Assembly: GCA_937924755.1 (NCBI GenBank)
Contig: CALEVZ010000005.1
Span: 22,609-86,608, forward strand
Length of the DNA stretch: 64,000 bases
Source: an uncultured bacterium
GTDB taxonomy: Bacteria > Acidobacteriota > Thermoanaerobaculia > Thermoanaerobaculales > Thermoanaerobaculaceae
Direction: 5' to 3'
A program made the position numbers and the translations under genes. Of this stretch, positions 32,291 through 52,120 are shown in pieces (position 1 is the first letter of the stretch; each line of letters starts with the position of its first letter). The notes under the pieces are model-generated. The model searched no databases, was not told where the DNA came from, and saw nothing but the letters and a program-made list of their open reading frames with translations.

Positions 32291-32321
32291 GGCGCACCCG
32301 ACGAGAAGAGGAGATGAGCCC

Positions 32322-37107: not shown

Positions 37108-38376
37108 CTACTTCTTGGCCGCGTCGCCGGTGGCGGCGCCGTGCAGCTTGACCTCCACCTTTTCCTCCAGGGAGTCGTAATACTCCTTGAGGATGGCGAT
37201 CACCTCGGGCTTGGAGAATTCTGGGGGAACCGGCTTGCCCTCGCTCATCAGCTTGCGCAGCAGGGTGCCGGACAGCAGCAGGCGGGCGCCACCCTTGTAC
37301 TGGCCGTTGTCGTCGATCACCGCCTTGGACTCGTGGGGGCAGGTCTTCATGGAGGCCATGGTGCCGCACTCGTAGCAGTAGAAGGTCCAGTCCAGCGGCA
37401 GCGGCTTGAGGGCCAGGGCGTCGGAGGGGATCTCGTGGAAGATCCTCTGGGCGTCGAAGGGACCGTAGTAATCCCCCACGCCGGCGTGGTCGCGGCCGAC
37501 GATGAGGTGGGAGCAGCCGTAGTTCTGGCGGAAGACGGCGTGCAGCAGCGCCTCGCGGGGACCGGCGTAACGCATATCCAGCGGGTAACCGGCCTGGATC
37601 ACCCGCTCCTTGCGGAAGTACTTGTTGATGAGGGCGTCAATGGCCTTGACGCGGACGTCGGCCGGGATGTCGCCGGGCTTGAGCTTGCCGACGAGCTGGT
37701 GGATGTACACTCCGTCGCACACCTCGATGGCAATCCAGGCCAGGTAGGCGTGGGAGTTGTGCATGGGGTTGCGCAGCTGTAGGGCGGCCACGGTGGTCCA
37801 GCCACGCTCCTCGAACGCCTTGCGGGCCTCGGCGGGGCGCTGGTAGAGCCCCTTGAACTGCTCGGGGAAGTACGATTCGGAGAGCACCTTCACCGGCCCC
37901 GCCAGATTGACCTCGGCCTGCTCCATGACCATCTTGACCCCTGGGTGGGCCGGGTCAGTGGTGCGGAAGACCTGCTGGCACTCGTGGTTCTTGTCGATGG
38001 TGTACTTCTCCGTCACCTTCATGGTGGCCATCAGGGTGTCGGTCTCGGAGTCCCACAGGGCCACTTCTTCGCCAATGGCGATGGAGTCGGCCAGCTCCCT
38101 GGTGGCCGAAAGGGTGATGGGGATGGGCCAGAACAGGCCGTTTTTGGAGGGCATCTGGTACTCGTCGCAGATGCCCTTCCAGTCGTCGAAGCCCATGAAG
38201 CCGTCGAGGGGGGTGAAGCCACCGATGCCCATCATGATCAGATCACCGGTTTCGCGGCTGGTGAGCGGGACCTTCTTCATACTCGCCGCCCGCTTGATCT
38301 CATCCGCCAGGCCCTGGCCTTCCAACAGAAGAGGCTTCAGTTCAGGACTACCGTGGGGGGGTACCAGCTTGCTCAT
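37108..38376 (-). CDS. sat: Sulfate adenylyltransferase (ATP sulfurylase), dissimilatory type
   Basis: 422 aa with [21 protein letters not shown], a Cys-containing insert [15 protein letters not shown] and a C-terminal extension as in sulfate-reducer Sat. GAGGAGG SD. Confidence 0.9.
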
Positions 38377-38730: not shown

Positions 38731-40599
38731 ATGGCGAGAATGCTGGTGGCAGGTTTGCTGTTGAGCGTGGGCATGAGTGCGATAGCGGCGGCGGCGATGC
38801 AGGAGGATGCCCGGTACCGGTGGAACCTGGACGACCTCTACCCGTCGCCGGAGGCGTTCGATCAGGCGCGCCGGCAGCTCGCCGGGCGCCTGGGCGAACT
38901 GGAGGAGGGGCGGGGCCGGCTGGGAGTCTCGGGGGCCGAGCTGGCCGCCGTACTGGAACGCATGTTTTTGTTTGCCAAGGAGTTGGGGCGGGTGTGGTCG
39001 TACGCCTCCATGCGTTCGGACGAAGACACCCGCGAGGCCGGGCCGCTGGCCGCTCGCCAGGAGGTGCAGCAGCTCGCCGTGGAGTTCGCCTCTCGCACGG
39101 CGTGGATCGCGCCGGAAATCCTGGCCCTGCCCAAGGGGCGGGTGGCCAGGATGCTCAAGGCCGAGGCGCGGCTGGCGCCCTACCGCTTCTACCTGGAGAA
39201 TCTGGAGCGGCAACGCCCCCACACCCTCTCGCCGGGGGAGGAAAAGCTCTTGGCCCAGAGCGGCACCTTGATGCGGGCTCCCTACAGCACCTATGGGATC
39301 CTCGCCAACGCCGACCTGCCGTTTCCCGAGGTGACTCTTTCCAGCGGCGAGAAGGTGCGCCTGGATCAGGCCGGGTACACGCGCTACCGGGCGTTGCCCG
39401 AGCGCGCCGATCGAATCCTGGTGTTCGGCGAGTTCTGGAAGACGTTCAAGGCCTTCGAGCGCACCTTCGGGGTGACGCTGGACGCCCAGGTGAACGCCGA
39501 TGTGTTTGCCGCGCGGGCGCGGCGCTACCCATCGGCGCTGGCCGCCTCCCTGGCCAACAACAACGTCCCCGAGGCGGTGTACCGCAGGCTCATCGCCGAG
39601 GCGCGGCAGGCCCTGCCCCTGCTGCATCGGGCCTTCCGCCTGCGCGCCCGCATGCTGGGGATCGAGGATCTCGCCTATCACGACATTTATCCGCCACTAG
39701 TCAAGGAGTTGAACCTGCGTTTCCCCATCGAGTCGGGGCAGGAGCTGGTGCTGCAGTCGCTGCGCCCCCTGGGGGAGGAGTACGTGGCGGTGGTGGCCCG
39801 CGGCTTCGGGTCGCGCTGGATGGACGTTCACCCCCGCCCGGGCAAGCGCTCCGGGGCGTACTCCAACGGTGCCGCCTACGATGTGCACCCTTACGTGCTG
39901 ATGAACTACAACGACGACTACGAGAGCGTATCCACTCTGACCCACGAGTGGGGCCACGCCATGCACTCCTACCTCGCCAACGCCGCCCAGCCCTACCCCA
40001 CCGCCGAATACTCCATCTTCATCGCCGAGGTGGCGTCCACCTTCAACGAGGCGCTGCTTTTGGACCACATGCTGCGGCAGGCGAAAAACGATGACGAGCG
40101 GTTATATTACCTCGGTTCCTACCTCGAGGGACTGCGGGGCACCTTCTTCCGCCAGACCATGTTCGCCGAGTTCGAGCTGGCCATCCACGAAGCGGTGGAG
40201 CGGGGGGAGGCTCTCACCGGCGAGCGGCTGTCGGCCCTGTACCTGGAGCTCCTGCGCCGCTACCACGGCCACGAGCAGGGAGTGGTGCGCATCGACGACG
40301 CCTACGCCGTGGAGTGGGCGTACATTCCTCACTTTTACTACAACTTCTACGTCTACCAGTACGCCACCTCGCTGGCCGCCTCGGCTCTGCTGGCCCAGCA
40401 GGTGCTGGCCGGCGAGGCCGGGGCGCGGGAGCGCTACCTGGGGCTGCTGAAGGCGGGGGGCTCCCGCTACCCCTACGAGCTGCTGGTGGAAGCCGGGGTG
40501 GACCTGGCATCGGAGGCTCCCTACCGCGCCCTGGCGATGCGGATGGCGTGGGTCTTGGACGAGATCGAGACGATCCTGGCCAAGCGCGGCGGCCGCTGA
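38731..40599 (+). CDS. pepF: Oligoendopeptidase F (M3B metallopeptidase), secreted
   Basis: 622 aa. Signal-like N-terminus, the zincin motif HEWGHAMH and a downstream E ligand region FIAEVAST. Confidence 0.85.
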   Translation: MARMLVAGLLLSVGMSAIAAAAMQEDARYRWNLDDLYPSPEAFDQARRQLAGRLGELEEGRGRLGVSGAELAAVLERMFLFAKELGRVWSYASMRSDEDTREAGPLAARQEVQQLAVEFASRTAWIAPEILALPKGRVARMLKAEARLAPYRFYLENLERQRPHTLSPGEEKLLAQSGTLMRAPYSTYGILANADLPFPEVTLSSGEKVRLDQAGYTRYRALPERADRILVFGEFWKTFKAFERTFGVTLDAQVNADVFAARARRYPSALAASLANNNVPEAVYRRLIAEARQALPLLHRAFRLRARMLGIEDLAYHDIYPPLVKELNLRFPIESGQELVLQSLRPLGEEYVAVVARGFGSRWMDVHPRPGKRSGAYSNGAAYDVHPYVLMNYNDDYESVSTLTHEWGHAMHSYLANAAQPYPTAEYSIFIAEVASTFNEALLLDHMLRQAKNDDERLYYLGSYLEGLRGTFFRQTMFAEFELAIHEAVERGEALTGERLSALYLELLRRYHGHEQGVVRIDDAYAVEWAYIPHFYYNFYVYQYATSLAASALLAQQVLAGEAGARERYLGLLKAGGSRYPYELLVEAGVDLASEAPYRALAMRMAWVLDEIETILAKRGGR

Positions 40600-40754: not shown

Positions 40755-41876
40755 CTAGCGTTTCTCCAGCCCTGCCATGCGGGCGTGCACCATGGCCAGG
40801 GTGCGGTAGAGCATGTGCGCGAACTTGGAGTAGGGGAAGGTGAGGAAGAGACAGAGCACGAACCCGAGGTGGAGGATGTAGGAGGACAGGGCGAAGGACG
40901 GGGCGTGGGCAAGGCGGGCCAGTTCCACCACCATGCCGGTGGCGATCACCAGCACGACGACGCTCAAAAAGAAGGTGTCGAAGGCGGACGAGGCGCCGGC
41001 GGCCTTGCGATCCCCCAGGCGGTTGCCCACCAGGATGGCGGCGCCGACGATGAGCAGGCCGGCCGAGACGTTGCCGAGGATTTTGTAGGGGTGGTCCAGG
41101 GCCAAGGGCATGGGGAGGTGTTGGATGTACATGCCGACGATGAGCAGCCCCGAGGTCACCGCCGCCCCCACAAACCCCCACAGCAGCGTCAGGTGGCCGA
41201 GCTTGCGGGGGCGGGCGGCGCCGCAAGAGCCGAAGCGCTTGTGGGTGGCCACCTCCACAAGGGCGGGCATGAGGTTTCCGAGGAAGGACCCCGAGCGAGG
41301 ACCGGACGCCCCCAGCGCCGTCCAGAAGCGGCGCCCCGCCACCCAGGACGCCAGGATCACCCAGGCGGCCACGGGGAAGTACACGGCGTAAATGAAGGAG
41401 TGGGGCACCAGCGCGTCGTACGCCCACCCCGCTTCCAGGCCCGCTGGCGGAGTGAGGCGACCGGTCAGGCCCAGGAGGGTCACCCAGAACAGCACCGGGA
41501 GGGCGAGTAACAGTGGCCAGGTGAGGCGTGCCGCCCCCACCAGCTTGCCGAGAAAACCTGGAAAGGCGAGCTTTTCGATGGCCAGGGAACGAACCGCCCC
41601 GAGCACGTCGCCTGGCCGCGCATCCCGCGGGCAGCGCACGGTGCAGTCGTTGCACTGGTGGCACAGCCACACCGCCGGATCTGCGGCGAGCTGATCGGCC
41701 ATGCCCCACTGGGCGAGCAGCATTTGCCTGCGGGGGAAGGGCCGGGCAGCGGGTGCCAGCTCGCACACGCTGGAGCAGGTGGCGCACTGGTAGCAGCGCG
41801 CCGCAGACTCGCCGCCCCGACGGCGCAGCTGGTCGCGAAACGCGGTGGAGGGAAGCAGAGCAGGAATGGCAGCCAT
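40755..41876 (-). CDS. qmoC: Quinone-interacting membrane-bound oxidoreductase subunit C (FeS plus membrane heme-b domain)
   Basis: N-terminal CYQCATCSSVC and CHQCNDCTVRCP ferredoxin-like motifs, followed by multiple TM helices of NarI/HdrE type. I preferred ATG 41876 (GGGAG SD 5 nt upstream); a GTG at 41882 is also possible. Confidence 0.85.
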   Translation of the reverse strand: MAAIPALLPSTAFRDQLRRRGGESAARCYQCATCSSVCELAPAARPFPRRQMLLAQWGMADQLAADPAVWLCHQCNDCTVRCPRDARPGDVLGAVRSLAIEKLAFPGFLGKLVGAARLTWPLLLALPVLFWVTLLGLTGRLTPPAGLEAGWAYDALVPHSFIYAVYFPVAAWVILASWVAGRRFWTALGASGPRSGSFLGNLMPALVEVATHKRFGSCGAARPRKLGHLTLLWGFVGAAVTSGLLIVGMYIQHLPMPLALDHPYKILGNVSAGLLIVGAAILVGNRLGDRKAAGASSAFDTFFLSVVVLVIATGMVVELARLAHAPSFALSSYILHLGFVLCLFLTFPYSKFAHMLYRTLAMVHARMAGLEKR

Positions 41877-41903
41877 GGTCACTCCCTTGCGGCGGAACTC
41901 GTC

Positions 41904-44156
41904 CTAAAACCCCTTCATGGGGTTCGCACCCAGCCCCTCGATCTCGGCTGAGAACTCGTTAAAGATTTGAGGGATACGCGAAAACTCGTGGTGCGACAGC
42001 TCCACCACCTTGATGCGCTCGGGCTCCAGGGCCAGGCGGGTCAACGTTTCCTGGACGTTGCCCAGGCGCGTCTGGGCGAGCTGCGAGCCGCGCACGTAGT
42101 GGCACTGATAGTCGTCCCCCGACTTGCAGCCCACCAACAGCAGGCCGTCGATGCCCCGGGAGAGGGCGTCGGCGATCCAGACGATGTTCATGGAGCCCAG
42201 GCAGCGCAGGGGAATGACGCGAATCCACGGCGACCACTGCTGCCGCTGGGCCGCCGCCTGATCCAGGGCGGGGAGGGCGTCGTTCTCGCACATCAGGGCG
42301 ACGATGCGCGGCTTTTCCTCGAACTCCTCCGGCACGCTCATCGCCTTGATCATCGCCGAGATGCGGTCGACGCCGTAGTCGGGGAAGGAGATGATCCGTT
42401 CGGGGCAGGCGCCCATGCAGATGCCGCAGCGCCGACAGCGTAGGGGGTTGAGCTGGGGGGTGCCCTTGACGTCCTCGTTCAGGGTACCGAAGGGGCACTC
42501 CTCGGTGCAGCGCTTGCACTGGGTGCAGCGCTGCAGGAAAAAGTCGGGCATGCCCAGATCGCCGGCGCGCGGGTGCACGGCGGCGCCGCGCTTGGCGGCT
42601 TCGATGCACTGGATGGCCTTCATGGCGGCGCCCCAGCCATCTTCGGCGGCCTGCGGCGGATCCATGGGGGCGCGCACCGTGCCGGCGGCGTAAATGCCGG
42701 TGCGGCGCGTCTCGTAGGGGAAACAGATGAAGTGGGAGTCGGGGAAACCGTACTTCAGCACCGGCATGTCGGGACCCTGGCGGTACTCCAAGTGCAGGAT
42801 TTCGGTGCCCTCGTGGTGCGCCAGCTGCTCGGCGAGGGCCGCCGCGTCCCGGCGCTGCGTTTCCGAGTCGCCCTTTTCGGCGCGCACCTTGGCGTCGTGC
42901 AGGGCGCGCACCGCCTCGCCGTCGGCGGCGTTGGGGACCATGCCCACGGCCAGTACCACCAGGTCGGCCTCCAAGGTGATGTCGTTGCCAAGCAGGCTCT
43001 CCCGCAGGTGGACCTGCAGGGGCCCGCGGCCGTTGCCGCTCACCCGCTCCACCTCGCCGCGGGTGAGCATGGTGTGGGGTTGGCTCTGCACCGCCAGGTA
43101 AAAGCGCTCCAGCTGCCCCGGCGTGCGCATATCGCGGTACACGACGGCGGTCTCGATGTCGGGGTGCTGCTGATGGATGGTCGCCACCTGCCGGAGGGTG
43201 GTGCCGCAACACTCGGCGGAGCAGTAGGGCAGGTGCTGGGGGTCCCGCGAGCCGGCGCACTGGACGAAGAGAACGCGCTTGGGGAGGGCCCCGTCCCCGG
43301 GGCGCTGGAGCGAGCCCTTGGCGAGCATCTCATCCAGCTGGGCCGAGGTGATGACGTTGGGGGAGCTGCCCCAGCCCAGATGAGGCAGCCTGCCGGCGTC
43401 GTAGGGGCGAGCCCCGGTCGCCTGGATGATGGCGCCGGCCATGAACGACTTCTCCCCCTGGGGGGTGGTGAGGGTGACGGCGAACTGACCGGGCTGCCCG
43501 GCGATGTGCTGGATCCTGGCACTGGTGTAGACGGTAACGCGCTCGTCAACCTGCACCTTGGCGACCAGCTCGGCGATGCGGTTGGGGTGGAGGACGTCGT
43601 AGGGCGGACACTCGGGCAGCAGGTGGGTGAGCCCCGACATGCGCCCGCCCAGGGTGGGCGAGGACTCCACCAGCACCACCGGGTGGCCGGCGGCAGCGGC
43701 GGCGCGAGCCGCTTCCAGGCCGGCCACCCCCCCTCCCACCACCAGGACGGTGTCGGAGATCTCGGCGGTGAAGGGTACCGGCAGGGACATCTTGGCCAGC
43801 TTGGCGATGCCCATGCGCAGGAGGTCGTCGGCCAAGAGCTGGGTGTCCTCGTGGTTGGGAGGCTGACACCACACCGCTTGCTCCCGCAGGGACACTCGTT
43901 CCACCGCCACCTTCAGCGGGTCGAAGGAAAACTCCTCCACCTTGGCGCGGGGGGAGCAGGCGGCAATTAGTACGCCGTCCACGCTGCCGTCGTCGATGGC
44001 AGCACGGATGGTGGCCACCCCTTGAGGGCTGCACAGGCAGGGGTGTACGGCGCGGTGGGCCGCCTTCTCTTCGCTGGCGGCCCTTTCTAGAGCAGCGACA
44101 TCGAGCGCCTCGCCGATGCCGCAACCGCTGCACAGGAACACTCCGATACGTTGCAT
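41904..44156 (-). CDS. qmoB: Quinone-interacting membrane-bound oxidoreductase subunit B (HdrA-like flavoprotein with MvhD-like C-terminus)
   Basis: 750 aa. IGVFLCSGCG, the FAD motif VLVVGGGVAGLEAA, two 4Fe-4S motifs (CTQCKRCTEECP, CRRCGICMGACP) and an MvhD-like tail (ALMCENDA...LRCLG). Confidence 0.9.
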   Translation of the reverse strand: MQRIGVFLCSGCGIGEALDVAALERAASEEKAAHRAVHPCLCSPQGVATIRAAIDDGSVDGVLIAACSPRAKVEEFSFDPLKVAVERVSLREQAVWCQPPNHEDTQLLADDLLRMGIAKLAKMSLPVPFTAEISDTVLVVGGGVAGLEAARAAAAAGHPVVLVESSPTLGGRMSGLTHLLPECPPYDVLHPNRIAELVAKVQVDERVTVYTSARIQHIAGQPGQFAVTLTTPQGEKSFMAGAIIQATGARPYDAGRLPHLGWGSSPNVITSAQLDEMLAKGSLQRPGDGALPKRVLFVQCAGSRDPQHLPYCSAECCGTTLRQVATIHQQHPDIETAVVYRDMRTPGQLERFYLAVQSQPHTMLTRGEVERVSGNGRGPLQVHLRESLLGNDITLEADLVVLAVGMVPNAADGEAVRALHDAKVRAEKGDSETQRRDAAALAEQLAHHEGTEILHLEYRQGPDMPVLKYGFPDSHFICFPYETRRTGIYAAGTVRAPMDPPQAAEDGWGAAMKAIQCIEAAKRGAAVHPRAGDLGMPDFFLQRCTQCKRCTEECPFGTLNEDVKGTPQLNPLRCRRCGICMGACPERIISFPDYGVDRISAMIKAMSVPEEFEEKPRIVALMCENDALPALDQAAAQRQQWSPWIRVIPLRCLGSMNIVWIADALSRGIDGLLLVGCKSGDDYQCHYVRGSQLAQTRLGNVQETLTRLALEPERIKVVELSHHEFSRIPQIFNEFSAEIEGLGANPMKGF

Positions 44157-44161
44157 GGCTG

Positions 44162-45418
44162 CTACCCCCTTCTTCCGGTGGCTGCAATGGCACGCGCCGC
44201 GGCGCCGGTGGCGTCACGTACGGAGGCGGCGACGTCCTCGGGACGCCGCGCCACGCCGGCGACGCTCAGGCCGAGGTCGTGACCGGGCAAGCCGAAGCCG
44301 TCCTCGTCCAGGAGAACCCCGAAGGGCGGGGCCTGCAGCTTGAGGTTGGACACCATGCCGGTGGCCAGTACCACCAGGTCGGCCTCGGCCTCGCTGAGCA
44401 CCCCCCGCTCCACGTCCTCCACCTTGAGCTTGAGCACGCCGTTGGTGCGGGCGATCTTGCCCACCTTCCCCTTGACGAGGCGGACGCCCTCCATGGCGGC
44501 CACCCGGGTGAGCACGTCCTCGTTGCGCCCGGGGGCGCGCCGGTCGATGTAATAGATGGTCACTTCGGCGTCGGGGAGCTGCTCTTTGACGTACACCGCC
44601 TGTTTGAGGGAGGCCAGGCAGCACACCGCCGAGCAGTAGGGCAGGTGGTTGACGTCGCGGGAGCCGGCGCACTGCACAAAGGCCACCCGCTTGGGAGCGG
44701 TGCCGTCGGAGGGGCGCAGGATCTTGCCCGCCGTGGGACCGCCGGGGGAAGCCAGCCGCTCCATGTGGACGTTGGCGATGACGTCCTGATCGAGGCCGCC
44801 CCGCAGCTCCGGAAGCTTCTCCAGGGGGTAGGGGCTCCACCCGGTGGTGACCACGACGGCGCCCACCTCCAGCGTCTCCTCGTGCGCTTGGGCGTCGAGG
44901 TCGATGGCCTGATAGGTGCAGGCGTCCACGCAGGCGCGGCAGCCGGCCGGGCAGGCGGCGCGGTCAAGGGTGAAGCGGCGCGGCCAGGCGTTACCGTGCG
45001 CCAGGCGAATCGCCTTCACCCTGGCCAGACCCAGGTTGAAGGGGTCAGCCACCTCTGCCGGACACACCGGCGAGCAGGCGCCGCAGGCGGTGCACAGCTC
45101 GTTCACGTAGGCGGGTTGGTGGCGCAGGGTGACGCTCCAGCCGGTGTCTGTCCGCCGGGCGGCGGTGACCTCGGCGTTGACGCAGACGCGCACATTGGTG
45201 TTGCGCTCCAGCCGGCGAGTGTTGATCTCCAGGCCGCAGGAGGGCGGGCACATCTTGGGGAAGTAGTGGTGAGTGCGAGTGATGCGTCCGCCCACGTAGG
45301 GTTCGCGCTCCACCAGCACCACCTTGCGCCCCGCCTCGGCGGCTTCGAGGGCGGTGGTGATGCCGGAGATCCCTGCGCCCACGACGAGCAGCGGGAGTTG
45401 CTGGGGTGCGGCACTCAT
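44162..45418 (-). CDS. qmoA: Quinone-interacting membrane-bound oxidoreductase subunit A (HdrA-like flavoprotein)
   Basis: ATG 45418 follows GGAGGACC. LLVVGAGISGITTALEAAE, CTACGACSPVCP and HdrA-type Cys motifs are present. The track ORF to 45751 is over-extended. Confidence 0.9.
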   Translation of the reverse strand: MSAAPQQLPLLVVGAGISGITTALEAAEAGRKVVLVEREPYVGGRITRTHHYFPKMCPPSCGLEINTRRLERNTNVRVCVNAEVTAARRTDTGWSVTLRHQPAYVNELCTACGACSPVCPAEVADPFNLGLARVKAIRLAHGNAWPRRFTLDRAACPAGCRACVDACTYQAIDLDAQAHEETLEVGAVVVTTGWSPYPLEKLPELRGGLDQDVIANVHMERLASPGGPTAGKILRPSDGTAPKRVAFVQCAGSRDVNHLPYCSAVCCLASLKQAVYVKEQLPDAEVTIYYIDRRAPGRNEDVLTRVAAMEGVRLVKGKVGKIARTNGVLKLKVEDVERGVLSEAEADLVVLATGMVSNLKLQAPPFGVLLDEDGFGLPGHDLGLSVAGVARRPEDVAASVRDATGAAARAIAATGRRG

Positions 45419-46218
45419 GAGGTCCTCCGTTGCGCGGGCGCCGCGGGGCGCACCGTGAGAGTGGGTTCGGCAAACAGGGCGAAGCGCAACCAACGCCAGG
45501 CGAACTCCAGCAGCGCTTCGTCGTCGCTGCGCAGTTGCTCCACCAGCTCGGCGTCGAGCTCGAAGCGTTGCAGGAAAGTGGTTTCGAAGATGAAGGAGCG
45601 GAAGGAGTCGAGGTCGTAGGCGGCGGTGAAGAACATCTCCATGCGCTTGGGATCCAAGGTGCGCCCGCCAATGAACCAGGGGTGGGAAACAATGGCGCGG
45701 TAGCCGGCCTCCCGGGCGTCGCGCTCGTCCACCCCCTGATCGGCCCGCCACTGCTCGGCGGTCCAGCGGCGGTCACCGCACCGCCCTTCGCAGAAGTCGT
45801 CCTCGAACAGGAAGTACACCGGCGCCGGCTCGACGCCGGCACGCGCCGGCGGGATGCCCATCCCCACCGGGTACATGCGGCACGCCCAGGGGCGATCCTC
45901 ATACACCGTGCACCCCTGCTCACCCACGAAGGGGCAGCTCTTGCGCTCGTCGTCGTTCATGCGCAGCATCACCACCGGCAGGTGCAGCTCCTTGGTGATG
46001 GGGGTGAGGGTGTGGCGATCCAGGAAGGTGCGCGTGGGCAGCTCCAGTCGGCGCGCCAGGCGCAGCACATCTAGCGGTGTCAGAATGATGTTAACGTCGG
46101 CGCAGCAGCGGTTGAAACAGGGCACGCCGGGATGGCAGGAAAAGGCGAAACTCTCGTGAGCCGAAAGCTGCCGCTTGCCGCGCAGCGCCTCCGGCACTTC
46201 GGTGACTGGTACGGTCAC
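45415..46218 (-). CDS. YkgJ/UPF0153-type Cys-cluster protein (putative Zn/Fe-chelating domain)
   Basis: 267 aa with FSCHPGVPCFNRCC and SCPFVGEQGCTVYEDRPWACRMYP. The GTG start overlaps the upstream stop (GTGA at 46215-46218). Its own stop overlaps the qmoA ATG (ATGA at 45415-45418). Confidence 0.65.
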   Translation of the reverse strand: MTVPVTEVPEALRGKRQLSAHESFAFSCHPGVPCFNRCCADVNIILTPLDVLRLARRLELPTRTFLDRHTLTPITKELHLPVVMLRMNDDERKSCPFVGEQGCTVYEDRPWACRMYPVGMGIPPARAGVEPAPVYFLFEDDFCEGRCGDRRWTAEQWRADQGVDERDAREAGYRAIVSHPWFIGGRTLDPKRMEMFFTAAYDLDSFRSFIFETTFLQRFELDAELVEQLRSDDEALLEFAWRWLRFALFAEPTLTVRPAAPAQRRTS

Positions 46219-46619
46219 GATGTCCCCCCCGTCCCCGAGTCGCCCTCGGGGATCACGCCAGCCTCGACCTGCCCGTCCGCCCCTCGTTGATCAGCACGGG
46301 TGGAAGTGCTGCCGAGACTCGGCGGTGGGCTCTTGGCTACGCTGCTGGCGTCATCCCCGATGATGCGATCCTTGAGGGCGTCCCGCGACCACACCGGCAG
46401 GGGCGAGGCGGCGCCGGTGCGGGGATCGACCCGGTGGCGGTAGGACGATTTCACCCCGTACTTTTCGAACATCCACACCCAGCCGCGGCGGAAGTAGGGA
46501 CAGGCGTCGTTAAAGCAAGCCAGGTGGTAGGGCTCCTGCCAGCCGGTGTTGTCAGGGAGCGCGAACTTCCTCAACGGCTCATGACAATGCGGGCAAAACG
46601 CAACTCCATCGGTAGTCAT
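46215..46619 (-). CDS. Hypothetical zinc-ribbon-like protein
   Basis: 134 aa. FCPHCHEP ... LACFNDACPYF gives four Cys in a CxxC...CxxxxC arrangement. A W/Y-rich core is followed by a Ser/Gly/Thr-rich tail. I recognise no family. Confidence 0.5.
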   Translation of the reverse strand: MTTDGVAFCPHCHEPLRKFALPDNTGWQEPYHLACFNDACPYFRRGWVWMFEKYGVKSSYRHRVDPRTGAASPLPVWSRDALKDRIIGDDASSVAKSPPPSLGSTSTRADQRGADGQVEAGVIPEGDSGTGGTS

Positions 46620-46653: not shown

Positions 46654-46683
46654 CCCCCCGGGCGCCGTGCGACGCCCGGGGGG
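46654..46683 (-). other. Intercistronic GC hairpin between aprA and the downstream genes
   Basis: Perfect 11-bp stem CCCCCCGGGCG / CGCCCGGGGGG (46654-46664 and 46673-46683) with an 8-nt loop. No U-tract follows on the transcribed (minus) strand. Confidence 0.6.
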
Positions 46684-46699: not shown

Positions 46700-48622
46700 T
46701 CAACCGCCGAGCAGTTCATGCTCTTTGGGCGGTCCGAAGACGTGCAGGATCGGCCGCTTGAGCATCTTCCACTCGCCGGTGTGCTGGTTGTAGATGCAGT
46801 TGACGAAGCAGTGCCAGTTCTCCTCGTCCAGCTTGGGAGTGTCGGCGCGGAAGTAGTAGCCCGGCCAGCGAGTCTCCTCGCGGAAGAGAATCGAGCGCAC
46901 GTGCGCTTCGGCCTGGTACATGCGGTGGACGTTTTCCCACGCCCGCATCAGCTCGTGCAGGTCAGCGGCCCCCAGGTTGGCGGAGTCCTCCTTGAGCAGG
47001 GCGAGCAGCTCCAGGGCTCGGTTGAGCAGGGGCTTGGAGGTGGTGAACTGGGCGCTGACGCCGCCGGCGTACTCGTCCATGAGCTTCTGCAGCCGCATCA
47101 TGAACATCTTGGGGAGGATGTAGTGGGGGTTGACTTCCGGCTGGGTGGTGGCGTTCTTGTGCTGCTCGTAGTGGAACAGCGGCTTGTAGGTGGCCGCCTT
47201 GAGCGCCTCGATCTGGGCGGCGTTCACCGTGGGCTTGGGCGGATTCTCCTTCACCAGGTAGCGGATCGCCGCCTTGGCGACGATGCGCCCCTCGGCGTGG
47301 GAACCCGAGGAGAACTTGTGCGACGAGGCCCCCGACGCGTCGCCGGCGCAGAACACGCCCTTGACGGTGGACATGCCGTCGTAGCCCCAGAAGTACTCCT
47401 TCCGGGTCTCGTCGGTCTGCAGGTCCTCGGGACCCGAAACCCAGGCGCCGGAGGCGCCGGAGTGGGAGCCGATGAAGTACGGCTCGGCGGCGGCGATCTC
47501 CGAGGACTTCTCCTCGGGCTGCACGTTGCTGGCAGCCCACAGGATGGCCTGGGAGATGGTCATGTCGAGGAAGTCTTCCCAGGCCTCGGACTCCAGCTCC
47601 TTCATCTTCTTCTGGTAGGCCTTGGGGTCGTCCTTGTAGGTGTCGGCGATCCTCTGGATCGCTTCCTCGGTGCGCATGTAGATGGGGCCCTTGCCCTCCA
47701 TCACGTCCAGCATGCCCAGGTAGTTGCGCAAATTGGCCGGGATCGGCTTGACGTGGCCGTAGGGCGCCCAGTTGGCCAGTTCGGCCTTGCGCTCGACCAT
47801 GTACTCGCCGCCGAAGGCGTTGGTGGCCCGGGACTTGAAGAGCAGGAACCAGGCTCCGACGGGGCCGTAGGCGTCCTTGAAGCGGACCGGGATGAAGCGT
47901 ACTTCCTGACAGGTCATCTCGGCGCCGGCCATCAGGGTGAAGTAGGCCGAAGCGCCGGCGTTCCACGGCGGATACCAGGCGCGCCCCTGTCCCTCACCGG
48001 AAGAGCGCGGCTTGAACACGTGTACCGCACCGCCCATGGCGACCAGGGTGGCGCGCGCCTTGAACACGTAGAAGGCGTTCTCGCGCACCGAGAAGCCGTA
48101 GGCACCCTTGCACTCTTCGCCCTCCATGATGGGGCCGACGATGAAGACGCGCTCGTAGATGTTCTCGGTGCCGAGGGCGTTCTTGGCCGCCTCGGCGACC
48201 ACCACCTTGTAGGACTCGCCGTTGATCATCAGCTGCCAGCGGCCCTCGTGCACGTAGCCGCCCTTCTCGTCCTTCCAAATGGGCAGGCCCCACTTCTCGA
48301 ACAGATGCACGGTGGAGTCCACGTGGCGGGCGATGGACGCCACCAGGTCCTCGCGGGTGACTCCCATGAGGTCGTTGCGGACGTAGTCCACGTAGTCCTT
48401 GACGGTGTTCTGGCCGTCCTTCAACCCGACGTACTGGTTGATGGCGGAAAGGCCCATGGCCACGGCGCCGGAGCGATCCACCGCCGCCTTGTCCACCAGG
48501 GTTACCTTGAGGCCGTGCTGCTTGGCCCAGTACGCGGCCTCCACGGCTGCGCCGCAGGCCGCCATGCCGCCTCCCAGGATCAGGAGATCGGTATCTACCT
48601 CGACGGTCTTGAAGTCCACCAT
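46700..48622 (-). CDS. aprA: Adenylylsulfate (APS) reductase alpha subunit
   Basis: ATG 48622 lies 6 nt after AGGAGG. DLLILGGGMAACGAAVEA is the FAD motif. The sequence reads as typical AprA throughout (SAINQYVG, WPGYYFRAD...). About 640 aa. Confidence 0.95.
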   Translation of the reverse strand: MVDFKTVEVDTDLLILGGGMAACGAAVEAAYWAKQHGLKVTLVDKAAVDRSGAVAMGLSAINQYVGLKDGQNTVKDYVDYVRNDLMGVTREDLVASIARHVDSTVHLFEKWGLPIWKDEKGGYVHEGRWQLMINGESYKVVVAEAAKNALGTENIYERVFIVGPIMEGEECKGAYGFSVRENAFYVFKARATLVAMGGAVHVFKPRSSGEGQGRAWYPPWNAGASAYFTLMAGAEMTCQEVRFIPVRFKDAYGPVGAWFLLFKSRATNAFGGEYMVERKAELANWAPYGHVKPIPANLRNYLGMLDVMEGKGPIYMRTEEAIQRIADTYKDDPKAYQKKMKELESEAWEDFLDMTISQAILWAASNVQPEEKSSEIAAAEPYFIGSHSGASGAWVSGPEDLQTDETRKEYFWGYDGMSTVKGVFCAGDASGASSHKFSSGSHAEGRIVAKAAIRYLVKENPPKPTVNAAQIEALKAATYKPLFHYEQHKNATTQPEVNPHYILPKMFMMRLQKLMDEYAGGVSAQFTTSKPLLNRALELLALLKEDSANLGAADLHELMRAWENVHRMYQAEAHVRSILFREETRWPGYYFRADTPKLDEENWHCFVNCIYNQHTGEWKMLKRPILHVFGPPKEHELLGG

Positions 48623-48633
48623 GGCAGCCTCCT

Positions 48634-49068
48634 TCACTTGGTCCACACGGCGGGGAGGCCGAGGGAAGCGGGTTCGGTGAACAGCGTGGCATCATCCAGC
48701 GTCGCCGTGGTTTCCCACCCGCCGGCCGGCTGTGCCTGACCCTCGGGGGTGGTCCGGATGGGGAACTTGAAGCGCTTGATCTGGCCGTTGCGGAACTTCA
48801 CCGTCCACATGATGCTGTCGGTGGAGCGCATCGGCACCACGGAGGCCCCCATGGGAACAAAGTCGGCGTAGCCGCGCACGTCCACCGCCTGCGTGGGGCA
48901 AATCTTCACGCAGTTGTAGCACTCCCAGCACATCTCGGGCTCGCGGTTGTACGCCTTCATCTTCTCCTTGTCGAGGACCATCAAGTCGTTGGGACAAATG
49001 TACTGGCAGGCGGTCTTGTCAAGCGCCTTGCACCCGTCACACTTGTCCGGGTTCACAAAACTCGGCAT
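48634..49068 (-). CDS. aprB: Adenylylsulfate (APS) reductase beta subunit
   Basis: MPSFVNPDKCDGCKALDKTACQYICPNDLM ... CWECYNCVKICP are the two [4Fe-4S] motifs. The AprB-specific C-terminal tail is present. GGAGG SD. Confidence 0.95.
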   Translation of the reverse strand: MPSFVNPDKCDGCKALDKTACQYICPNDLMVLDKEKMKAYNREPEMCWECYNCVKICPTQAVDVRGYADFVPMGASVVPMRSTDSIMWTVKFRNGQIKRFKFPIRTTPEGQAQPAGGWETTATLDDATLFTEPASLGLPAVWTK

Positions 49069-49473: not shown

Positions 49474-50283
49474 CTAGACCCGTCCACCCAGCCACTCTGC
49501 CCTCACCTCCTGCACCTCGGGGAGAGCGCGCACGGCGGCGAGGACGGCGACTCGTTGGCGCTCGGAGGGCAGGACCCCCGCCAGCGTCACGACCCCGTCC
49601 TGCGTCCCAACCTCGACCATGGCGGCCGCTGCGCCCACCTCGGGGTTGAGAAAGAGGGAGGCGCGAACGTGGTTGAGCAGGAAGAGGTCGGCGAGGGCCT
49701 GGCGCGAGGAGGGGGTGGCGCGGAACTCTGGGCGGTCGGCCACCGCGGCGATGGTGAGGCAAGCCGAGTCCAAGGGGATCCTCTCCAGGTTGATGACGAG
49801 GTCATACAAGCTGGGGTCGTGCCAGTCGACGTTGTACAGGAAACGCGTCCACGCCACTCGCTCCTCGTCGCGGGAGCGAATGTAGGCCTCGGCGGCCTTG
49901 GCCTCCAGACCGTGGGCGGCCATCGCCTCGGGCAAGCGCATGGCCATGGGTGCGATCACCCGCACCCGCACCACGTGGGCGATGCCGGCCAGCAGCAGGT
50001 GGCCGGCGTGGCCGTGGTAGACCACGTTGTCACCCAGGGCTTCCTGACACAGCGCCGCGGTGATGGCGGCCAGGTACTTCTGCCGGTCGAGGCTGAAGCG
50101 CTCCCAGAAGCCGGGGGGATGTTCGATGCCCTTGGTCAGAACCTCCTCGTGGACGCCGTAACGCTCGGCGGCGGTTATGAGCACCTCGCGGCTGATGACG
50201 CGATAGCCGAGGGTCGCCCCGAGGCAGGCGGCCAGCCGTTTTCCCCCCGAAAACGTGCCGCGCGAGATGGTGATGATGGCCAT
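49474..50283 (-). CDS. Cytidylate-kinase-like (AAA/P-loop-like) protein with a C-terminal BON domain
   Basis: MAIITISRGTFSGGKRLAACLGATLGYRVISREVL is typical of Cytidylate_kin2-family proteins. The C-terminal VEVGTQDGVVTLAGVLPSERQRVAVLAAV is BON-like. The track ORF to 50439 is over-extended. Confidence 0.55.
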   Translation of the reverse strand: MAIITISRGTFSGGKRLAACLGATLGYRVISREVLITAAERYGVHEEVLTKGIEHPPGFWERFSLDRQKYLAAITAALCQEALGDNVVYHGHAGHLLLAGIAHVVRVRVIAPMAMRLPEAMAAHGLEAKAAEAYIRSRDEERVAWTRFLYNVDWHDPSLYDLVINLERIPLDSACLTIAAVADRPEFRATPSSRQALADLFLLNHVRASLFLNPEVGAAAAMVEVGTQDGVVTLAGVLPSERQRVAVLAAVRALPEVQEVRAEWLGGRV

Positions 50284-50395
50284 CGTCGTGTCCGTTCCTG
50301 GGCTGCTGCTCCCCACCGGCGACCACCGCCCCAAGTGGCCCTTCGGCGCCGCCGACGATTCATCGTACGATAATCCGAGCAGTACAGGGGGTGAT

Positions 50396-52120
50396 ATGCG
50401 CGGCAAAACTCGAGCCCTGGTCTGGTTGCTAGTCCTCACGGGTGTCGTTGGTCTGGGCGTGCTGGGCTTCCTGATTGCTGTCGGCGTGGCGGCGCGCCAC
50501 CTGCCGGGGCAGGCGGTGCTTCACCTGGAGATCGGCGGCGCCATCCCGGAGGCTTCTCCGGAGGTGCCGCTGGCAGGACTTTTCGGGGCGACGCCGGTGA
50601 GCCGGCGGGACCTGCGCGATGGCCTGGTGGCGGCGGCGAAGGACGCCCGCGTGCGGGCGGTTCGGGTCCGCATCAACGAGCTGGCCACGGGACTCGCCAC
50701 GCTGCAGGAACTGCGCGCCCTGCTGGAGCGGGTCGCCGAGGCCGGCAAACCCACCACGGCCTACCTGGACACCGCGGGAGAGTTCGCCCCCGGTAACCTC
50801 GAGTACTACCTGGCCACGGCTTGCGACCGCATCGTCCTCAACCCCCTCGGGGACGTCAACCTGGTGGGGCTGTCAGCGCGCGTTCCGTTCATGCGCGGGA
50901 CCTTCGACAAGCTCGGCATCGAGCCCGAGTTTCCCGGCATCGGGGAGTATAAGACCGCACGCTTCTTCTATACCCATAAAGACTTCACCCCTGCCCATCG
51001 GGAGATGATGGAGTGGTTACTGGCCTCCTACGGGGAGCAGCTGGCGGTCGGCATTGCCGAGGGGAGGGGAGTGAGCGAGGAGGAGGCGCGCCACTGGATC
51101 GCTTCGGGACCTTTCCTGGGTCCGGAGGCGCTAGCCCGAGGGATGGTGGACGAGCTGGCGGACTGGGAGTCGGTGCGGCAGGAGACCGCCACCCTGAAGG
51201 GAAAAGGGCTGCAGGAGATTTCCCTGACTCGTTTGCTGCGCAGCAGCCGACCGGATACCTCCGGCGCGAAGATCGCCGTGGTGGTGGGGCAGGGTGCCAT
51301 CATGCGCGGCGAGAGTGGCTTCTCGCCCATGCCCATGTTTGGCGGGGACGTCATGGGCGCCGATACGCTGGCCCGGGCGTGGCGCCAAGTGCGCCGGTCG
51401 GGCGCGAAGGCGGCCATCTTTCGTATCGACTCCCCCGGCGGCAGCGCCGTCGCCTCCGAAATCATCCGCGCCGAGATGGCGCGTACCGCAGAAGAGATTC
51501 CGGTCATCGTCTCGATGGGGAACGTGGCCGCTTCGGGGGGGTACTGGGTGGCCTGCGGCGCCCGGCGTATCATCGCCTCCCCGGGCACCATCACCGCATC
51601 CATCGGGGTCTTCGGCGGGCACCTAGCGACCAGTGACTTCTTCGAGGACAAACTGGGGATCACCTGGGGGCGCATCGACACCTCCCCCAATGCCGCCATC
51701 TATGGCGGCCTGGACCCCTGGACCCCGGCCCAGCGGGAGGTGGTGGAGCGGCAGCTCCACCGCATTTACGACGCCTTTCTGGAGCGAGTCAGCCAGGCGC
51801 GGCGCATGAGTCGGGAGGAGGTCGACGCGGTGGGACGGGGGCGGGTCTTCACCGGCGCCCAGGCGCTGGAGCGCAAGCTGGTGGACGGCCTCGGCGGCTT
51901 CGAGGAGGCGCTGGCGGCGGCGCGGGAGGAGGCGGGGTTGGCGGCGGACGCCCCCGTGCAGCTTAACGTTTTCCCGCGCCCGGTGCCGATCTGGAAGCGA
52001 CTCATGCAGCACGGCGACGAAGCGTCGCTGCGGGCGTTCCTGCGCGCCCTGGCGCAGGGTCGCCTGCCGGCCCCTCGTGTACCCGGGGCGGTGTGGCTGC
52101 CCCCCATGGAGATCCGGTGA
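50396..52120 (+). CDS. sppA: Signal peptide peptidase SppA, 67K type (two S49 domains)
   Basis: An N-terminal TM helix and two ClpP/crotonase-like halves. The second half carries SMGNVAASGGYWVA (catalytic Ser region). Confidence 0.85.
   Translation: MRGKTRALVWLLVLTGVVGLGVLGFLIAVGVAARHLPGQAVLHLEIGGAIPEASPEVPLAGLFGATPVSRRDLRDGLVAAAKDARVRAVRVRINELATGLATLQELRALLERVAEAGKPTTAYLDTAGEFAPGNLEYYLATACDRIVLNPLGDVNLVGLSARVPFMRGTFDKLGIEPEFPGIGEYKTARFFYTHKDFTPAHREMMEWLLASYGEQLAVGIAEGRGVSEEEARHWIASGPFLGPEALARGMVDELADWESVRQETATLKGKGLQEISLTRLLRSSRPDTSGAKIAVVVGQGAIMRGESGFSPMPMFGGDVMGADTLARAWRQVRRSGAKAAIFRIDSPGGSAVASEIIRAEMARTAEEIPVIVSMGNVAASGGYWVACGARRIIASPGTITASIGVFGGHLATSDFFEDKLGITWGRIDTSPNAAIYGGLDPWTPAQREVVERQLHRIYDAFLERVSQARRMSREEVDAVGRGRVFTGAQALERKLVDGLGGFEEALAAAREEAGLAADAPVQLNVFPRPVPIWKRLMQHGDEASLRAFLRALAQGRLPAPRVPGAVWLPPMEIR

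Follow-up and report, generated by a model that had tools for sequence, protein, structure and literature searches.

Adenosine 5′-phosphosulfate (APS) is reduced in the redox step that comes first in dissimilatory sulfate reduction, a process that matters to the global sulfur and carbon cycles, and the route by which electrons pass from the quinone pool through QmoABC to the APS reductase AprAB has been an open question for about 20 years. In the window analysed here, a stretch of 64,000 nucleotides (nt) of contig CALEVZ010000005.1 (GenBank:GCA_937924755.1) from an uncultured acidobacterium of the Thermoanaerobaculaceae, two small open reading frames (ORFs), ORF134 and ORF267, stand between aprA and qmoA, and the question is whether they belong to this pathway and, if so, in what capacity. 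We consider it very probable that the pair belongs functionally to Apr-Qmo. Both ORFs are real genes for cytoplasmic, predicted metal-binding proteins, and appear to form a dedicated two-gene accessory module of Apr-Qmo for APS reduction or sulfite oxidation, carried in what seems to be a large, horizontally spread operon lineage with the order aprB-aprA-hairpin-ORF134-ORF267-qmoA-qmoB-qmoC(-sat). In the order of the minus strand, the features are:

48634–49068, minus strand: aprB, APS reductase beta subunit, 144 amino acids (aa), with Pfam APS-reductase_C (PF12139, E 7e-36) and Fer4 domains
46700–48646, minus strand: aprA, APS reductase alpha subunit, an ORF of 648 aa, with Pfam FAD_binding_2 and Succ_DH_flav_C
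46654–46683, minus strand: conserved GC-rich RNA hairpin with a 13-bp stem and a 4-nt loop, directly 3′ of the aprA stop codon
46215–46619, minus strand: ORF134, predicted zinc-ribbon protein of 134 aa, ATG start (ORF list, alignment A2)
45415–46218, minus strand: ORF267, YkgJ/PF03692 cysteine-cluster protein of 267 aa, GTG start (Pfam, alignments A1 and A4)
44162–45418, minus strand: qmoA, HdrA-like flavin adenine dinucleotide (FAD) and iron-sulfur (Fe-S) flavoprotein of 418 aa, ATG at 45418 (Pfam and NCBIfam HdrA-type matches; the best PDB relatives are HdrA chains)
41904–44156, minus strand: qmoB, HdrA-like with a C-terminal MvhD/FlpD domain, 750 aa (Pfam FlpD E 3e-40, Pyr_redox_2, Fer4)
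40755–41882, minus strand: qmoC, membrane haem b/Fe-S subunit of 375 aa (NCBIfam NF038018 equivalog, 407 bits vs a cut-off of 300)

This order was obtained from the ORF list and a reading of the reverse strand, and it bore out an earlier note on this DNA, which had placed two extra genes between aprA and qmoA and had described overlapping stop and start codons at both of their downstream junctions. ORF134 ends and ORF267 begins within GTGA (46215–46218; reverse-strand read acatcGTGAccgta), and ORF267 ends and qmoA begins within ATGA (45415–45418; reverse-strand read gacctcATGAgtgcc). The 4-nt overlap was kept in 71 of 82 loci for ORF267/qmoA and in 56 of about 80 for ORF134/ORF267, which supports the translational coupling that had been proposed from the window; by this pattern, ORF134 and ORF267 are apparently coupled to qmoA. 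Codon and G+C style, which had been likened to that of the neighbouring genes, was indeed similar, except that G+C at third codon positions (GC3) was slightly lower (0.85 in ORF267 and 0.79 in ORF134 vs 0.88–0.92 in the neighbours); the window as a whole has a G+C content of 69%. The public gene call of an identical contig (L001) gives aprA as 640 aa, vs 648 aa for the ORF.

One genome per species (GTDB r232) was scanned with peptide patterns of the ORF267 clade and the matches were confirmed by tblastn, by which at least 579 stretches in species-representative genomes were found to encode an ORF267 relative. Synteny was counted in the best 80 of these at least 579 loci by mapping the window's own proteins with tblastn. 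All 80 are from metagenome-assembled genomes (MAGs), and by record title 43 belong to Acidobacteriota (Thermoanaerobaculia, Holophagae, Vicinamibacteria and Ca. Sulfomarinibacteraceae), 22 to Myxococcota/'Deltaproteobacteria', 3 to NC10/Methylomirabilota and 12 to other or unclassified groups (Riflebacteria, Gemmatimonadota, Planctomycetaceae, Burkholderiales, Acidithiobacillales, Ca. Deferrimicrobium and Tepidiformaceae), these being bin labels that may be wrong. The ORF267 homologue stood in an apr/qmo context in 80 of 80. Upstream, aprA was found in 71 of the 72 loci with enough sequence (L042 being without it, and L036 having it 4.6 kb away), and qmoA was directly downstream in 73 of 76, the other three inserting sat and a paralogue. 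ORF134 was present in 77 of the 80; L042 and L076 are without it and L064 begins at a contig edge. The position of aprB was common to related loci, and metagenome contigs L005 and L007 (66–70% identity) showed the same gene order. The co-localisation with apr and qmo that the earlier note had asked for is thus seen elsewhere.

As a control, we used the gene for a cytidylate-kinase-like (PF13189) protein with a weak BON domain (49474–50439, minus strand, about 400 nt upstream of aprB; 269 aa in the public gene call), which was kept in only 10 of 63 loci and was therefore rejected as a third conserved partner; ordinary neighbours are accordingly not conserved, whereas ORF134 and ORF267 are. As a P-loop nucleotide kinase, this protein could contribute to AMP recycling in a subclade; alternatively, it could be a neighbour with no relation to the pathway. 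AprA was 73–95% identical among loci assigned to different phyla, and the simplest reading of this identity would be that the whole operon moved horizontally as one unit. The closest species representative among the matches listed was an Acidobacteriota MAG (ORF267 89% and AprA 95% identical), an identical ORF134 protein is present in the 150-kb ENA metagenome contig ERZ6863697, and no named cultured isolate with the two-gene version was among the matches listed in any search. The rule given in the earlier note, that aprBA is followed directly by qmoABC in sulfate reducers, stands for the cultured models, whereas in hundreds of uncultured species the two-gene version of aprBA-qmoABC is the norm.

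Some loci depart from this order. In L076 (a Myxococcota MAG) aprA is followed by ORF267 with no ORF134 in a 239-nt gap, and in L042 (also Myxococcota) ORF267-qmoABC has neither aprBA nor ORF134 within 8 kb upstream. In L020 (a Ca. Riflebacteria MAG) the 3′ end of aprA runs into the middle of ORF134 (L020:2500–3050), whose N-terminal CxxC is missing; the seemingly giant ORF there was rejected as a product of a deletion or an assembly join. Apparent in-frame ORF134-ORF267 fusions in L061, L078 and L081 were also rejected, since translation shows a stop after the ORF134 core through which tblastn had aligned.

Synonymous sites were saturated among the loci (pS, the proportion of synonymous differences, 0.47–0.63), so absolute dN/dS was dropped and only relative non-synonymous divergence (pN) was used. 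On this scale AprB (0.111) and AprA (0.146) were the most constrained, followed by ORF267 (0.240), QmoA (0.241), QmoB (0.257), the ORF134 core (0.285) and QmoC (0.326). Purifying selection on both ORFs is thus comparable to that on the Qmo subunits, and the amino-acid divergence of ORF267 equals that of QmoA. Mirror-tree partial correlations were calculated from the distance matrices of the 48 loci holding all seven genes, and they recovered the known partners AprA-AprB (0.37) and QmoA-QmoB (0.49). ORF134 was correlated with AprB (0.25), AprA (0.22) and ORF267 (0.21) and hardly with QmoA/B (0.03), whereas ORF267 was correlated with QmoA (0.16) and QmoB (0.19) and less with AprA/B (0.04–0.06); the preference for Apr or Qmo held in 92% of bootstraps for ORF134 and 94% for ORF267. 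These values hint at a chain Apr-ORF134-ORF267-Qmo.

Expression with the operon was checked in a published metatranscriptome of a sulfate-reducing acidobacterium, MAG CO124, under oxic and anoxic conditions with 4 replicates each (PMC10564751, Suppl. Data 2). In reads per kilobase per million (RPKM), the ORF267 homologue (YkgJ gene) was 0 in all oxic replicates and 6.6–9.0 in the anoxic ones (log2 fold change −7.2, adjusted P 6e-10), and the ORF134 homologue (zinc-finger gene) 0 in all and 2.0–5.4 (−4.8, 0.003); qmoA was 0 in all and 0.3–1.7 (−4.9, 0.0016), qmoB 0 in all and about 2.6 (−7.0, 2.6e-9), and aprA 0–4.8 and about 57 (−5.8, 5e-21). Both genes, silent under oxic conditions, were hence induced under anoxia together with sat, aprBA and qmoAB (PMC10564751), and in CO124 they are transcribed and co-regulated with the pathway at the Qmo tier, not the Apr tier.

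A transcript level at the Qmo tier rather than the Apr tier matches the hairpin that follows aprA. The 91-nt gap between aprA and ORF134 folds at −48.5 kcal/mol (z −3.29), and 71 of 73 related gaps had z below −2 (median −4.5), with a median uninterrupted stem of 13 bp. In an alignment of 46 sequences compensatory changes were found in 9 of the 13 pairs, one pair being G-C in 26 sequences and A-U in 18. The core is GCCCC(G/A)GGCGC-loop-GCGCC(C/T)GGGGC, often followed by a T-rich run (loci L005–L088), and the stem sequence is unusually conserved given the saturation of synonymous sites. An Rfam search with the hairpin matched no family, and a simple terminator scan did not flag it in the window, because the T tail of the window copy is weak. 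The hairpin is probably a leaky terminator or a 3′-end stabiliser separating the highly expressed aprBA from the distal genes, and in the former case it would probably set the ratio of Apr to Qmo expression. Another possibility is that a protein binds there. With a leaky terminator, most transcripts would end after aprA, ORF134, ORF267 and qmoABC would be translated from a less abundant read-through transcript, and the 4-nt overlaps would couple translation so that ORF134, ORF267 and QmoA are made in fixed proportions.

ORF267 was assigned to the YkgJ/UPF0153 type in the earlier note, and Pfam agreed, with PF03692 (CxxCxxCC) passed at 32.4 bits vs a cut-off of 23 (E 1.5e-7, residues 34–118). 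Its homologues numbered 1532, the top 120 being 64–97% identical, and form a coherent family of about 240–290 residues in which all listed members carry PF03692. The two cysteine clusters were as described earlier, C28HPGVPC34FNRC38C39 and C95PF..GC103TVYEDRPWAC113RMYP, and satisfy the YkgJ signature of an N-terminal C..C...CC with a second cluster CPF..GC.VY..RP..CR.YP. Eight cysteines (28, 34, 38, 39, 95, 103, 113 and 143) were invariant in alignments A1 (24 sequences) and A4 (18 sequences, distant relatives included), and together with about fifteen other residues they are invariant in Apr-linked, second Qmo-linked and unlinked members alike. The AlphaFold2 (AF2) model had a mean predicted local distance difference test score (pLDDT) of 74.6 and a predicted template modelling score (pTM) of 0.76, with a confident C-terminal helical domain and a less confident cysteine-rich N-terminal half; no hydrophobic stretch in ORF267 or ORF134 reaches the length of a membrane helix. 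RPWACRMYP, SHPWFIGG and a PPARAGVEP loop are invariant features specific to the ORF267 clade, and since the loop is also predicted to be disordered (pLDDT below 50, residues 116–133), a combination typical of partner-binding motifs, it may possibly be one.

The only characterised PF03692-type protein is FliB, the Salmonella flagellin lysine N-methyltransferase, whose N-terminal CX4CX3CC binds an O2-sensitive [4Fe-4S] cluster, and which has eight conserved cysteines and methylates lysine with S-adenosylmethionine (SAM) (PMC8598068). ORF267 resembles it in the motif (CX5CX3CC) and in its eight conserved cysteines and, on the FliB precedent, is predicted to bind an Fe-S centre, of the [4Fe-4S] type, or zinc. 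ORF267 differs from FliB in length and C-terminal domain, its context is not flagellar (the window holds no flagellar genes and the context is apr/qmo in all 80 loci), and SAM use is not indicated, Pfam recognising no SAM-binding or methyltransferase domain in it. NCBIfam gave no match at E ≤ 10, the FliB model included, for ORF267, its paralogue ORF267′ (below) or the Oceanidesulfovibrio marinus relative, in a search whose HMMER filters may drop very weak matches. Therefore ORF267 was rejected as a FliB flagellin methyltransferase, and it seems to share the FliB cofactor domain without being a FliB. There was no match to an HdrB-type CCG domain at E ≤ 0.01, a sequence profile search of PDB returned nothing (best E = 1), and Foldseek against PDB found no relative of the ORF267 or the ORF134 model (best E 4.4 and 1.1). 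The well-characterised unrelated family that the earlier note had named as a refutation was thus not found for the pair in the PDB sequence search, Foldseek or NCBIfam.

In ORF134 the motifs C9PHC12 and C35FNDAC40, in the spacing CX2CX22CX4C, were likewise as described earlier; in alignment A2, C35 and C40 are invariant and C9 and C12 near-invariant. The core (residues about 8–88) continues after these knuckle cysteines with CFNDxCPYF..GW.WM...SYR.R..P...SPLPVWS, and AF2 models its roughly 80 residues with pLDDT above 90 as a zinc knuckle pair, a helix and a small sheet; the isoelectric point (pI) of the core is 7.7, near neutral. The Ser/Gly-rich tail noted earlier is also real, but it is not conserved: residues 91–134 are predicted to be disordered (pLDDT about 50), and many loci have an acidic tail, others a lysine/arginine-rich one and some none at all. 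Some Acidobacteriota loci share a short (D/G)VIP(E/D/G) motif in the tail (window 46215–46349). Because the last Gly codons fall on the ribosome-binding site of ORF267, some of this conservation may operate on the nucleotide sequence.

No Pfam or NCBIfam family matched ORF134 above threshold. PF04606 (Ogr_Delta), of the P2/P4-like phage transcription activators, whose signature we take to be the same CX2CX22CX4C spacing, matched only the first ~45 residues at 15.5 bits (E 0.016), below the cut-off of 26.3; 27 of 29 ORF134 relatives matched it weakly at E ≤ 1 (best 3.5e-7, model positions 2–43 of 47), and one fusion protein (P0280) reached 27.1 bits. Beyond the shared spacing, Ogr/Delta proteins have no counterpart of the ~45-residue C-terminal half of the core (GW.WM...SYR.R..P...SPLPVWS), ORF134 was not in a phage context in any locus, and DNA binding is not indicated for it. 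A full scan of 1.84 billion representative proteins yielded only 263 representatives of the ORF134 family, and the core appears to be a new, undescribed zinc-ribbon domain family, with zinc binding predicted from its cysteines. In at least seven of these representatives (P0280, P0286, P0289, P0320, P0354, P0359 and P0377) the core is fused to class I SAM methyltransferase domains, with either partner first, and metagenomes of sediments and wetlands commonly contain fusions of this kind (442 confirmed matches); other members (P0274, P0312 and P0347) have a C-terminal extension of about 130–150 aa without a Pfam match. Evidently the ORF134 domain serves as a module placed next to some other unit, catalytic or binding. 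Neighbours of the fusion genes in 52 loci (L095–L174) were PNPOx-like (19), photolyase-like (14), YbgA/DUF1722-like (14) and short-chain dehydrogenase/reductase (12) genes; the metagenome scan found no YkgJ or Apr neighbour and one coincidental QmoB-like gene, and the fusions were accordingly rejected as a direct link to Apr/Qmo. Trm112-type proteins are small zinc-ribbon partners of SAM methyltransferases, and Trm112-like domains are fused to methyltransferases in some bacteria. By analogy only, ORF134 is alike in being a small four-cysteine zinc ribbon with a domain found fused to Methyltransf_11, and unlike in that only 1 of 29 ORF134 relatives gave a marginal Trm112p match (E 0.15) and that its partner is a YkgJ protein, not a Rossmann-fold methyltransferase.

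A second YkgJ gene was found beside a second type of Qmo. The order was aprB-aprA-ORF134-ORF267-sat-ORF267′-qmoA′-qmoB′-hdrCB in L037, L046, L082 and L092, and sat-ORF267′-qmoA′-qmoB′-hdrCB in L093 (second YkgJ-Qmo set at L037:10085–15589, L092:8001–13446 and L093:403–5856). ORF267′ has 257–284 aa, is about 43% identical to ORF267 and lies directly upstream of qmoA′; the junction has gaps of 36–133 nt and no overlap coupling, ORF267′ has no ORF134 partner of its own, and the preceding sat is divergent. QmoA′ has no ferredoxin insert, and HdrC-like and CCG domains are joined in the product of the last gene, the HdrCB-like neighbour carrying PF02754 in L092 and L093. Each of two Qmo lineages thus has a YkgJ gene of its own immediately upstream of qmoA, the second paralogue not having been described previously, and where QmoABC is replaced ORF134-ORF267 stay with aprBA. 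The whole ORF267 family was rejected as an Apr/Qmo marker, because relatives in cultured organisms and in one metagenome contig are unlinked, and linkage is thus a property of two subclades only. In two unlinked loci, O. marinus (L089:10001–11374) and L094:8001–9292, a YkgJ relative of about 255 aa is followed directly by a gene for a 173–180 aa CTP_transf_like (PF01467) nucleotidyltransferase, a pairing that the non-Apr branch may conserve.

Downstream of qmoC, the window differs from most related loci, in which sat lies within about 100 nt of qmoC, by a gene of the opposite strand:

38731–40599, plus strand: M3-family oligopeptidase gene (gene list of L001), between qmoC and sat
37108–38376, minus strand: sat, ATP sulfurylase, 422 aa (Pfam ATP-sulfurylase, PF01747, E 5e-81, and PUA_2)

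A qmoC-sat gap of about 2.3–2.8 kb, similar to that of the window, was seen in L010, L026, L029, L034, L065 and L086. No dsr genes lie within the window, and its flanks encode pyrimidine biosynthesis, a resistance-nodulation-division (RND) pump, a TonB receptor, an acyl-CoA synthetase and an IS200-type transposase. The last, an IS200/IS605-type Y1 transposase gene (PF01797; 52908–53888, minus strand), is about 4 kb upstream of aprB, which is consistent with mobility of the region. On the plus strand, 31118–33506, there are two adjoining genes, one for a two-domain glyoxalase/dioxygenase (4-hydroxyphenylpyruvate dioxygenase-like) and one for a homogentisate 1,2-dioxygenase N-terminal-domain protein, and these O2-dependent dioxygenase-like proteins suggest that the host may be a facultative aerobe rather than a strict anaerobe.

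As to the function of the pair, the starting point is that purified QmoABC and AprAB bind via QmoA (KD 90 nM) with no electron transfer in vitro, and that a third partner has been proposed (PMC3333476). Binding without electron transfer and a proposed third partner make it attractive to regard ORF134 and ORF267 as Fe-S/zinc adaptor subunits at the AprAB-QmoA interface that serve electron transfer, a reading we hold tentatively as quite possible, short of probable. ORF134 would be a structural zinc ribbon on the Apr side; ORF267, on the Qmo side, would carry at least one [4Fe-4S]-type cluster on CX5CX3CC, plus four further invariant cysteines, and its Fe-S centre(s) would add a redox centre within or alongside the route of electrons between QmoA/B and AprB, which may be the entry point for the postulated third partner. 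As would be expected of Qmo subunits, the pair is encoded in the qmo operon and co-expressed with it (overlap 71/82; CO124). No Qmo structure was present in the PDB copy searched. We regard as unlikely a bolder version, in which the two are true extra subunits ('QmoD/QmoE'-like) and themselves the long-postulated third partner, a physical and electronic Apr-Qmo bridge or a dock for a low-potential donor, with the unlinked ~250-aa YkgJ relatives of cultured sulfate reducers possibly acting in trans. If it were true, the pair would allow menaquinol-linked, energy-conserving APS reduction, and the relatives in trans would explain why purified QmoABC and AprAB transferred no electrons.

Several points weigh against an adaptor. 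The main evidence against any essential role comes from cultured model sulfate reducers, in which aprBA is followed directly by qmoABC and Qmo binds AprAB directly (PMC3333476), so the pair is not universally required at the locus; nor is it present wherever QmoABC is present, since the clusters described for cultured organisms are without it and the ORF267 relatives in cultured sulfate reducers are unlinked. Full-length relatives at 37–42% identity occur in unrelated contexts in O. marinus, Desulforudis sp., Thiovibrio sp. and one metagenome contig, and ORF134 itself is missing in L042 and L076. The mirror-tree signal is weak, and gene adjacency with intra-operon recombination could give the same pattern, while the constraint values are only relative, absolute dN/dS having been rejected for saturation. 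By analogy, finally, the sole biochemical precedent of the family, FliB, is an enzyme and not an electron carrier, and the fusions of the ORF134 core with SAM methyltransferases would fit an enzyme-adaptor role as well as a structural one.

These last two points lead to the possibility, somewhat unlikely in our estimate, that the pair is a maturation or modification factor, in which ORF267 would be a FliB-like [4Fe-4S] enzyme and ORF134 its Trm112-like targeting or activating partner, together modifying AprA/AprB or QmoA/B, or inserting or repairing a cofactor in them, without being permanent subunits. The use of a [4Fe-4S] cluster in SAM-dependent lysine methylation by FliB, with eight conserved cysteines like those of ORF267 (PMC8598068), would agree with this, as would the methyltransferase fusions in both orders (at least seven proteins, 442 metagenome matches) and the invariance of the eight cysteines even in unlinked relatives, which suggests a shared chemistry independent of Qmo. 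However, ORF267 has no recognisable SAM-binding or methyltransferase domain and no NCBIfam match at E ≤ 10, FliB included, the fusion genes have photolyase-like, YbgA-like and PNPOx-like neighbours instead of YkgJ, Apr or Qmo, and transcripts at or above the level of qmoA/B with conserved coupling fit stoichiometric subunits better than catalytic helpers. Furthermore, we know of no modification of Apr or Qmo. We judge it quite improbable that the two are redox- or oxygen-responsive regulators, with ORF267 sensing through an O2-labile Fe-S centre and ORF134 binding DNA or the hairpin RNA, so as to control qmo transcription or read-through in facultatively aerobic lineages. Such a role would suit the cysteine spacing of ORF134 and the weak matches of 27 of 29 relatives to phage transcription activators (PF04606), the hairpin conserved in sequence and structure immediately upstream of ORF134 in 71 of 73 loci, the switching of the operon from off under oxic to on under anoxic conditions in CO124, the possible facultative aerobe suggested by the dioxygenase-like proteins, and the O2 sensitivity of the FliB cluster (PMC8598068). 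Yet the Ogr_Delta match is below cut-off (15.5 vs 26.3 bits) and confined to the first ~45 residues, the core is not strongly basic (pI 7.7), ORF267′ has no ORF134 partner, it is rare for regulators to be translationally coupled to their structural target genes and to match them in abundance, and GC-rich hairpins with T runs are ordinary terminators in GC-rich genomes.

It is extremely improbable that the ORFs are chance products of GC-rich DNA or unrelated genes inserted in the operon. Many long spurious ORFs do occur in the GC-rich DNA here, newly acquired genes do enter operons unrelated to them, an argument made for DVU0851 (PMC3125180), and GC3 is a little lower in ORF134 (0.79) than in the neighbouring genes; but conservation at the protein level across several phyla, pN like that of the Qmo subunits, confident core AF2 models, invariant cysteines, conserved position and overlaps, and transcription of both genes with the operon already contradict such an origin. 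That none of these four readings holds is decidedly unlikely. In the gene neighbourhoods, transcripts and family searches covered here, none of the three refuting outcomes named in the earlier note was seen. Of the metal-centre, electron-transfer and maturation roles for which the earlier note had put the pair forward, the association with Apr-Qmo is supported, with no decisive choice among the three. Whichever applies, adaptor subunits, maturation factors or regulators, the pair marks a distinct, widespread version of the pathway. There seems to be a real but unproven chance that it bears on how AprAB is reduced, and ORF134 and ORF267 are small, soluble, concrete candidates for Qmo/Apr assays. 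The genomes that carry the pair include Acidobacteriota, now thought to be major environmental sulfate reducers.

Pathway models, gene-marker schemes and annotation pipelines currently ignore ORF134 and ORF267, and the statement that no current model of APS reduction includes them is correct to that extent; it needs the qualification that two papers had already tabulated or drawn them as conserved hypotheticals. [quoted passage not shown] The pair is not discussed in the main texts of Hausmann 2018, Anantharaman 2018, Flieder 2021, Dyksma & Pester 2023, Diao 2023 and Neukirchen 2023, and no functional discussion was found in literature on YkgJ, PF03692, UPF0153 or COG0727 with qmo or apr. It is therefore a widespread, previously tabulated but unanalysed addition to the textbook pathway.

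Compared with known systems, the uncharacterised DVU0851 of Desulfovibrio vulgaris, which is also co-transcribed with qmo (PMC3125180), differs, on a comparison by description only, in lying after qmoC and in reportedly having no homologues outside Desulfovibrio (PMC3125180), whereas ORF267 is in a widespread Pfam family. The canonical sat-aprBA-qmoABC clusters of cultured sulfate reducers and green sulfur bacteria, such as D. vulgaris, Archaeoglobus fulgidus and Chlorobaculum tepidum, share with the window AprB, AprA, QmoA, QmoB, QmoC and Sat in the same order (curated models) and the presumed role, in which the quinone pool is connected to APS reduction or sulfite oxidation (PMC3333476). The window lineage differs in that 1) two conserved genes and a hairpin are added between aprA and qmoA, 2) qmoA is coupled to ORF267 rather than following aprA, and 3) this two-gene version is seen in MAGs of Acidobacteriota, Myxococcota, NC10 and others. 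The partners of AprBA are known to vary, with QmoAB-HdrBC/HdrCB and AprM among them, and the electron-delivery side is modular and has been rebuilt several times (PMC10504309); whereas those variants replace QmoC, the version in the window adds two soluble proteins between Apr and Qmo.

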